Source of the DNA: Eledone cirrhosa
Lineage: Eukaryota
NCBI GenBank assembly: GCA_964016885.1
Contig: OZ024755.1
Coordinates: 23,126,001-23,190,000, forward strand
Length of the DNA: 64,000 nt
Direction: 5' to 3'
The notes below the pieces were generated by a model, which searched no databases, was not told the origin of the DNA, and was given only the letters and a program-made list of their open reading frames with translations. Made by a program: the position numbers and the translations under genes. Shown here piece after piece: positions 56,360 to 57,849 of this stretch; positions within the stretch are counted from its first letter, which is position 1; every line of letters begins with the position of its first letter.

Positions 56360-57126
56360 TATATATATTCATATATATATATATTCATATATATATTCAT
56401 ATATATATATTCATATATATATTCATATATATATATATATATATATATTCATATATATATATATATATATATATATTCATATATATATATTCATATATAT
56501 ATATATATATTCATATATATATATTCATATATATATATATATATTCATATATATATATTCATATATATATATATATATATATTCATATATATATTCATAT
56601 ATATATATATATATATATATTCATATATATATTCATATATATATATATATATATATTCATATATATATTCATATATATATATATATATATATTCATATAT
56701 ATATTCATATATATATATATATATATATATTCATATATATATTCATATATATATATTCATATATATATTCATATATATATTCATATATATATATATATAT
56801 ATATATTCATATATATATTCATATATATATATATATATATATATTCATATATATATTCATATATATATATATATATATATATTCATATACATTTAGAAAC
56901 ACACAGATACATGCGGACACACACATATATACATGAATGCATCCGCACCCAACTGTGAGTTAAGGGTGCCAACTTCACCGATGTTGCTCAATGAATGACT
57001 GGGACAGACCAATTCAGTTTGAACCAGACTGAACCAGTATCAGAGTTAAAAATACATTATGAAGAGAGAAGAAACATTTAGATATAATTAGTAATAAAAT
57101 GTATCATACCTAAACTGTTCCTAAAT

Positions 57127-57214
57127 TCCTCGACTACGTAGTTTCGTGGCATAAACAAAAACAATATATCAAAGATATAGAGTCCTTGCGAGGTCTGCCG
57201 ACTTATCAAGAGGA
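57127..57214 (-). ncRNA. Type I hammerhead, U3-A8 core variant
   Basis: tcctc-TTGATAA-gt.ggca..tgccac-GAAA-ctacgtag-TC-gagga; palindromic ACTACGTAGT; GUC triplet. Confidence 0.82.
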
Positions 57215-57716
57215 TACCTCATTTTACTAGTCTCAAGAACGCGTCTACACGACGTGAGAAAGAATCCCAAAAGCGGAGGGGGAGATAGTCACGCGATATA
57301 ACGGTCGAGAAACAGAGCTAAGCCTCTTATAACCACGAAAAAAATACCACGGAGGCGGAGGGGGTATTCATATCGAGGCCGTAGAAGAGGTAGTGAAGAA
57401 GGCGAGAAGTATGAGTAATGGAAGCTTTCCAGTTGTCCCCACACTTCAAAGATTGCTCGACCAGAGGGAGTTATTAATACATTTAGAAACACACAGATAC
57501 ATGCGGACACACACATATATACATGAATGCATCCGCACCCAACTGTGAGTTAAGGGTGCCAACTTCACCGATGTTGCTCAATGAATGACTGGGACAGACC
57601 AATTCAGTTTGAACCAGACTGAACCAGTATCAGAGTTAAAAATACATTATGAAGAGAGAAGAAACATTTAGATATAATTAGTAATAAAATGTATCATACC
57701 TAAACTGTTCCTAAAT

Positions 57717-57805
57717 TCCTCGACTACGTAGTTTTCGTGGCATAAACAAAAACAATATATCAAAGATATAGAGTCCTTGCGAGGTCTGCCGACTTATCAA
57801 GAGGA
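57717..57805 (-). ncRNA. Type I hammerhead, U3-A8 variant (second copy, GAAAA)
   Basis: As 57127-57214 but with one extra A in the GAAA run. Confidence 0.7.
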
Positions 57806-57849
57806 TACCTCATTTTACTAGTCTCATTTTACTATATATATATATATTC

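Follow-up and report, generated by a model that had tools for sequence, protein, structure and literature searches.

The insertion and its hammerheads

The window, the whole 64,000-nt stretch of Eledone cirrhosa DNA analysed here (GCA_964016885.1, contig OZ024755.1, positions 23,126,001 to 23,190,000 of the forward strand), contains a microsatellite field (50152-60577) that is broken up by four mobile elements. The element under study is a protein-free tandem insertion with type I hammerhead ribozyme motifs on the minus strand. Its parts, its flanks and two neighbouring elements, one of them Penelope-type (PLE), are as follows.

54888..56886, no strand: (TA)n/TTCA microsatellite target, 3' flank
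56887..57834, minus strand: whole insertion, 1.6 tandem units of a 591-nt retrozyme (by alignment)
56887..56963, minus strand: long hairpin 2 (monomer about 169-233), then the second fixed 3' end site
57052..57131, minus strand: long hairpin 1 (monomer 1-70), then the first fixed 3' end site
57127..57220, minus strand: intact type I hammerhead (by motif and alignment)
57210-57214 with 57127-57131, minus strand: stem I of the intact hammerhead
57203-57209, minus strand: its core UUGAUAA
57146-57202, minus strand: its 57-nt branched domain II
57142-57145, minus strand: its GAAA box; C17 lies at 57132
57133..57142, minus strand: perfect 10-nt palindrome, stem/loop III (by folding)
57190..57220, minus strand: candidate 5-bp pseudoknot, GAGGU (57216-57220) with ACCUC (57190-57194, in domain II)
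57315..57334, minus strand: 20-nt stretch able to pair with stem I and the UUGAUAA core, a candidate antisense lock
57132..57721, minus strand: complete unit between both predicted cleavage sites, 590 nt here and 591 nt in the family
57717..57811, minus strand: upstream hammerhead copy, core 57794-57800, C17 at 57722, private GAAAA at 57732-57736
57835..60577, no strand: (TA)n/TTCA microsatellite target, 5' flank
50693..51525, plus strand: 465-nt retrozyme, canonical CUGAUGA hammerheads at about 50780-50798 and 51245-51263
60576..64000: Hydra-type PLE, inverted 5' arm, running on past the window (locus L136), with a minimal hammerhead near 60700-60770 on the minus strand

The direct repeat described in an earlier sequence-only reading was recovered, 56887-57235 matching 57477-57826 in 349 identical bases with one gap (an extra T at 57732), but its 590-nt period is private to this insertion and the family monomer is 591 nt. 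The cleavage sites predicted there, with C17 at 57132 and 57722, likewise stand with the unit length amended to 591 from 590 nt; near 57273 one base has been lost from the window unit, a private deletion, and contigs of four public runs retain that base. The insertion does begin at 56887, which is the fixed 3' end site 245 nt past the cleavage site, but it runs 8 nt beyond the proposed end at 57826, to 57834, with a duplicated 8-nt piece (57827-57834) at its 5' junction, where the element is truncated at monomer position 488. The minus strand reads, as had been reported, UCCUC-UUGAUAA-57 nt-GAAA-CUACGUAG-UC-GAGGA. The extra A of the upstream copy, earlier attributed to mutation or homopolymer error, is private: 102 of the 103 motifs listed, from 30 partly overlapping loci, read GAAA, and a single contig of run X1 covers the site without the extra base. 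Having GAAAA instead of GAAA, the upstream copy departs from the core boxes, and judging from its letters this hammerhead is probably impaired.

No frame of at least 120 codons lies inside the unit; the frames listed are microsatellite and touch only the unit edges. The element had been called retrozyme-like, and it does have a type I hammerhead in every tandem unit, a non-coding monomer and extensive self-pairing; it shows no LTR structure, its ends are PLE-like, and it belongs in all probability to the non-LTR retrozymes.

The suggestion that the motif would be hidden from CUGANGA searches was borne out, and standard models miss it too. None of the Rfam hammerhead models matched 56880-57840 even at E<=10, as is expected from the core variant and the long domain II, and the Rfam microRNA matches are microsatellite and hairpin noise. 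Rfam does pick up the CUGAUGA hammerheads of the 465-nt retrozyme, weakly (HH9, 38.9 bits, under the cut-off of 52). CUGANGA and Rfam searches can therefore overlook a family with more than 7,000 motifs. Minimal hammerhead-like motifs of the CUGANGA kind also occur in the window at 14236-14290 (plus strand), 34626-34674 and 1167-1244 (both minus strand); the one at 34674 resembles the terminal repeat of the Hydra-type PLE, and that at 1244 is weak. Palindromic or inverted short repeats at 5615-5776, 30879-30970, 35011-35323 and 47225-47411 are probably MITE-like elements, and a short reverse transcriptase fragment lies at 27400-27759 (plus strand; PF00078, E 4e-8).

Conservation and folding of the ribozyme

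Across the 3.0-Gb assembly, 6,094 sites match the 19-nt core pattern exactly and at least 7,206 whole intact hammerhead motifs are found, with none for either reversed control; both counts are lower bounds on motifs, not numbers of insertions. Near-identical copies are dispersed, and the best copies are identical on many chromosomes, which marks the family as young. Three subfamilies were sampled (the youngest with its close grades, an older one and a third), from best or first-listed matches rather than random draws, and their majority sequences are 77-86% identical. A 71%-identical relative, considered as an autonomous partner, was traced to the third retrozyme subfamily, which has the same core. 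One young subfamily carries a C-to-U change at the stem II bulged base (C1:20525277, 36736540, 52510913 and others) and includes several multimeric insertions. A near-identical unit also occurs at low depth in runs X1 and X6, whose labels name other organisms (A and C) than those of X2-X5; it may stem from contamination, from a close relative or from transfer.

The boxes of the type I core (UUGAUAA, GAAA and UC) are present with a Watson-Crick 3-8 pair, which is U-A in all 40 aligned copies. Position 3 departs from U in just 14 copies (6 C, 4 G, 4 A), and each of these retains A8. The conservation of UUGAUAA among copies, on which the sequence-only reading had made its proposal depend, extends even to the third subfamily (32 of 33 motifs). 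The same reading held that C3 and G8 had both been changed within the lineage, and this found no support: a C3-G8 sibling family was sought in the assembly and is absent, and no CUGANGA motif stands ahead of this stem III anywhere in it. Since U3 is fixed and there is no such sibling, any swap must be older than the sampled family, whose copies carry no trace of its direction.

Selection on the ribozyme, which had been argued from the 3-8 swap, is well supported on other grounds, namely conservation and stem I compensation in the alignments. Variable positions among the three subfamilies number 3 of 54 in the ribozyme and 172 of 537 elsewhere (p = 8e-6), the 54 positions having been set from structure before the third subfamily was examined. 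Two of the three variable ribozyme positions form one compensating stem I pair (U-A in 16, U-G in 12 and C-G in 12 of 40 copies), representing one or two evolutionary events in a single lineage. Over the three stems (stem I open), 96.7% of cells are paired compared with 37-54% in slid controls, with one pair changed on both sides.

The ribozyme is rated as very likely active. It was also considered that the hammerhead might be a relic with little or no catalytic activity, retained for another role, such as protein binding or as a promoter. The large domain II and the competing helices would suit a relic, and 8 of 9 Xenopus retrozyme dimers gave no cleavage in vitro (10.64898/2026.07.22.740005, seen in part), which counts against explanations based on cleavage. 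Against a relic, conservation coincides exactly with the catalytic boxes and the three stems, stem I covaries, the subfamily change falls on the stem II bulged base, and changes in stem IIb mostly keep pairing; U3-A8 cores are moreover active in vitro according to work cited in the available text of PMC3088659. Such a relic is accordingly regarded as improbable.

The complete unit is highly self-paired, folding at z = -5.76 relative to 100 shuffles, and 62% of the monomer is paired when folded as a circle. Its pairs show many pair-keeping changes, with 5 of 158 changed on both sides. The GAGGU/ACCUC pseudoknot, a kind of tertiary contact that is common in hammerheads (PMC3088659, in part), is 97% paired and invariant in the three subfamilies, without covariation. 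The 10-nt palindrome is unfolded alone and forms a duplex with a second copy at -12.9 kcal/mol; because stem III folds only as this duplex, the hammerhead would probably work as a dimer (compare the palindromic loop III described in the accessible part of PMC4209133).

The antisense lock (monomer 388-407) may in turn fold the ribozyme off. Both of its variable positions stay paired, and the triplet at positions 512, 2 and 397 reads U,A,A at 75 loci, U,A,G at 4, U,G,G at 11, C,G,G at 13 and otherwise at 2, in a tally where one locus may count twice. As position 397 follows the stem I pair, both alternative helices stay paired at each step. In the folding model, where the pseudoknot is not counted, the hammerhead fold lies 6.5-8 kcal/mol above the lowest-energy fold. 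Support for the lock is strong in the fold of the alignment and in that of the older subfamily (pair probability 0.94), whereas in the single-sequence fold of the youngest subfamily its probability is 0.01 and a small local hairpin blocks stem I instead. It is a candidate switch, predicted to pair strongly in the older subfamily and weakly in the youngest one.

Insertion ends and the candidate enzyme

The 3' ends of insertions fall at monomer 80 (window 57052, and 57642 in the upstream unit) or at about 245 (56887, and 57477 upstream). These sites are 165 nt apart and each lies ~10 nt beyond a long hairpin. TA-rich DNA adjoins 123 of 129 defined 3' ends; target-site duplications are unreadable inside (TA)n. 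Head-to-head insertions number 84 in three sets (44, 19 and 21), 13 overlapping loci having been dropped before the end analysis; both ends lie at a defined site in 71, and the remaining 13 are cut by the locus edge or end elsewhere. An 80 end is paired with a 245 end in 68 of the 71 (p = 5e-17 against 50%), one of the 68 being a local duplicate. The three others have 245 on both arms, which counts against the mechanism proposed below, and 80 on both arms was not seen among the 71.

Head-to-head arms, a tail on one arm, 5' truncation and a microsatellite target are all observed, as in non-autonomous PLEs. In the described elements one of the inverted arms may be longer by a 30-40-nt tail (PMC3846280, PMC8557442), which has been explained by the enzyme starting at either of two internal sites (PMC11167929); in the available texts of PMC11167929 and PMC3846280, it is specific to PLEs that the two head-to-head arms differ in which of two alternative internal 3' ends they use. 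We therefore hold with high confidence that mobilisation is of the PLE type. A LINE-type reverse transcriptase frame (window 52920-54986, minus strand; PF00078, E 1e-31) sits in the same microsatellite and could suggest a LINE as the mobiliser, but such split two-site ends are PLE-specific in those sources and the local Hydra-type PLE has the same end pattern, so that a LINE is highly implausible.

The Hydra-type PLE is a 4,014-nt unit that is abundant in the genome. A protein search gave 63,630 first-look candidates, and 105 scored matches have 98-100% identity, many of them with 738-codon frames. The window copy has its frame split in two, with intact 738-codon copies elsewhere in the genome, and the retrozyme thereby co-occurs with active PLEs, as expected of retrozymes. 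Assignment to the Hydra clade follows from motifs, hammerhead and ends: the family (P0001) has DKT, CxCX5C, RWR for RWK, a (TA)n target and a hammerhead. Atlas neighbours of its protein include GIY-YIG/RT families in a minority of members, and Pfam and PDB searches with the protein gave no match. Its ends lie near 58 and 145 nt past its own hammerhead; among 12 pairs, for which some arms were fetched separately, 9 are mixed, 1 is alike and 2 are unresolved.

Homology between the retrozyme and the terminal repeat of this one PLE family was rejected, the scores of 13-14 being matched by 72-92 of 100 shuffles. With no detectable sequence in common, the Hydra-type PLE is a candidate partner only. 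Naiad PLEs likewise favour (TA)n (PMC8557442, in part), and that the Hydra-type family supplies the enzyme is possible but rated somewhat below even.

The 465-nt retrozyme is young and forms long arrays genome-wide. It has fixed 3' ends near 232 and 301 nt past the cut, with all three of its pairs mixed. The two retrozymes had been called unrelated, which holds for sequence but not for the two-end insertion pattern that they have in common. Their best alignment score, 17, is reached by 2 of 100 shuffles with the young 591-nt form, which is borderline, and by 39 of 100 with the older subfamily, which is non-significant; homology was not accepted. Separately, the strand opposite hairpin 1 (57077-57135) resembles the 465-nt hammerhead (51250-51305) at 68% over 59 nt. 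This is possibly a decayed antisense hammerhead and more likely chance.

Template, mechanism and comparison with known systems

The integration route of animal retrozymes, the enzyme and the role of circles as template are hypotheses in the available texts of PMC7229834 and 10.64898/2026.07.22.740005, where PLE mobilisation is proposed from co-occurrence and homology and tandems are ascribed to circle reverse transcription or local amplification. The questions of integration become testable by computation and in vitro here, because this single genome combines young insertions in their thousands, whose ends can be read, with another retrozyme family and a candidate enzyme that is intact. The core variant being known already, the value of the family lies in making animal retrozyme integration testable.

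Arms are longer than one unit in 68 of 132 cases, reaching 4,255 nt and crossing the cleavage site. In 5 of 25 young inverted insertions, both arms contain a private variant that no other sampled insertion has; at 28 places the subfamily markers match between the two arms and at 7 they differ, gap placement accounting for three of the 7. At locus L052, all 7-8 passes of both arms share one haplotype, which beyond two subfamily markers has 9 all-pass differences, 7 of them A>G; a 28-nt segment taken from it has 7 occurrences in the assembly, every one within L052. One pass has a 16-nt duplication, and the arm junction (L052:4205-4265) holds several short tandem copies of a 10-12-nt unit piece, which suggests template slippage. 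Because passes and arms share a private haplotype, one circle read repeatedly, perhaps after A-to-I editing, is the simplest explanation; alternatively, a source array has been lost or is unassembled.

In a set of 48 insertions with identities of 97% or more, from which four noisy loci were excluded, A>G makes up 6 of 16 variants common to all passes and 1 of 32 pass-specific ones (p = 0.004). A>G does not exceed T>C among all-pass variants (6 and 5, p = 0.35) and the strand bias on subfamily branches is not clear; a general ADAR signature was accordingly rejected, and editing rests mainly on L052. The 621-nt contig of run X1, which closes on itself as a cycle in the assembly (591 + 30) and has a depth of 7.8, was left unused as evidence for circles, since a circle, a tandem array or thin multi-copy DNA coverage would all give the same.

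A circular template is, on balance, favoured. The same element and a PLE-type enzyme could also act with an uncleaved linear multimer from a tandem locus as the template, circles being by-products. The 68 of 132 arms that read through the cleavage site would fit such a template, as would the disfavoured active fold in the folding model and the dominance of unprocessed RNA as substrate in vitro (PMC11167929, in part), where hammerhead mutants had no effect on insertion by an anole PLE, a result that counts against cleavage-dependent explanations. It needs, however, a source array with the L052 haplotype, of which the assembly has none, though such an array could be lost or on the other haplotype. 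The 5' ends, which become about threefold sparser ahead of the predicted cut, give a modest hint of cleavage: among the first 100 of 577 matches listed, ends next to TA lie just after the predicted cut at 31 loci and before it at 7, compared with 20 and 15 at a control anchor (first 100 of 327 matches listed), a step with p = 0.04 when loci are counted by hand and p = 0.07 without four loci (inversion junctions and one likely duplicate), and some templates may therefore be cleaved linear RNA. We regard the uncleaved linear multimer as unlikely. Insertion of single units that later grow into tandems by unequal crossover or slippage, in the manner of satellites (10.64898/2026.07.22.740005, in part), would likewise homogenise neighbouring units, and one insertion (L046) has indeed been duplicated locally. 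Later growth of this kind is at odds with arrays whose 3' ends are fixed at two sites, whose 5' ends are scattered and whose unit numbers are non-integral, with variants common to oppositely oriented arms, and with youngest arrays of up to about 7 units that are 99.9% identical to dispersed copies, and it is considered very unlikely.

The element is thus probably a non-autonomous non-LTR retrozyme that parasitises an endonuclease-bearing PLE. Tandem genomic copies would be transcribed, and the U3-A8 hammerhead (type I) would cut after C17 to free 591-nt monomers, as its conservation suggests; it would probably do so as a dimer joined through the palindromic stem III and aided by the pseudoknot. 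Ligation would close the monomers into circles, and there the ribozyme would be folded off. A PLE reverse transcriptase-endonuclease would then nick (TA)n and prime cDNA at two internal sites ~10 nt 3' of the hairpins and 165 nt apart, one per target strand. On a circular template the enzyme may keep going for as many as about 7 units; the cDNAs from both sites would join head to head or one arm would be resolved alone, structures that are both observed. A fuller combination is offered tentatively, as a reading that is somewhat less likely than not: the insertions would record rolling-circle reverse transcription of a retrozyme circle, in which a dimeric PLE enzyme primes both target strands from one RNA at two hairpin-marked sites, not by self-priming on an antisense template, with A-to-I edits sometimes fixed in every pass and with an antisense lock that is matched to the U3-A8 core, co-evolves with it and holds the ribozyme inactive while circular.

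The U3-A8 core, although rare, is not in itself new in nature. Natural hammerheads with the same Watson-Crick swap at 3-8 are known (Perreault 2011, PMC3088659), and about 1,300 U3-A8 matches have been reported in Schistosoma PLEs (Cercyon; PMC4209133). The Cercyon motifs are, in the part of that source available, heterogeneous, minimal and mostly single, whereas those described here are full-size, homogeneous and in tandem in a non-autonomous element. No report of a U3-A8 retrozyme family or of PLE double ends in a retrozyme was found in a search covering the available main texts of PMC7229834 and 10.64898/2026.07.22.740005, literature listings and a small part of the subscription literature; the word 'ribozyme' is absent from the accessible text of the octopus repeat paper PMC13282606.

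With the animal non-LTR retrozymes of those two papers, as far as their texts were available, the family has in common the non-coding units in tandem, each carrying a single type I hammerhead, the palindromic loop III, the highly self-paired monomer, thousands of copies and co-occurrence with PLEs. The 591-nt unit falls within the 51-972 bp range of the 2026 survey (10.64898/2026.07.22.740005) and exceeds the 170-400 nt circles tested in 2020 (PMC7229834). The family differs in its U3-A8 core and in a branched domain II of 57-62 nt with a candidate pseudoknot, where animal retrozymes have a short loop II; in a ribozyme predicted to be folded off in the circle, as in plant retrozymes and viroids but not in most animal retrozymes (PMC7229834); and in that PLE-type double ends are documented here, while homology to a PLE terminal repeat was not found. 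The (TA)n target and the hammerhead of the co-resident PLE are common to Hydra-clade PLEs, which encode a protein, unlike the protein-free retrozyme (PMC8557442, in part). Finally, the tail systems of PLEs (PMC3846280, PMC8557442, PMC11167929, all in part) show the same head-to-head insertions, 5' truncation and microsatellite targets, together with the one-arm extension and the two internal start sites. Their sites are 30-40 nt apart, compared with 165 nt in the retrozyme, about 87 in the local PLE and 69 in the 465-nt family, and in contrast to described tails the double ends here belong to a protein-free element in which the pairing of unlike ends is near strict.
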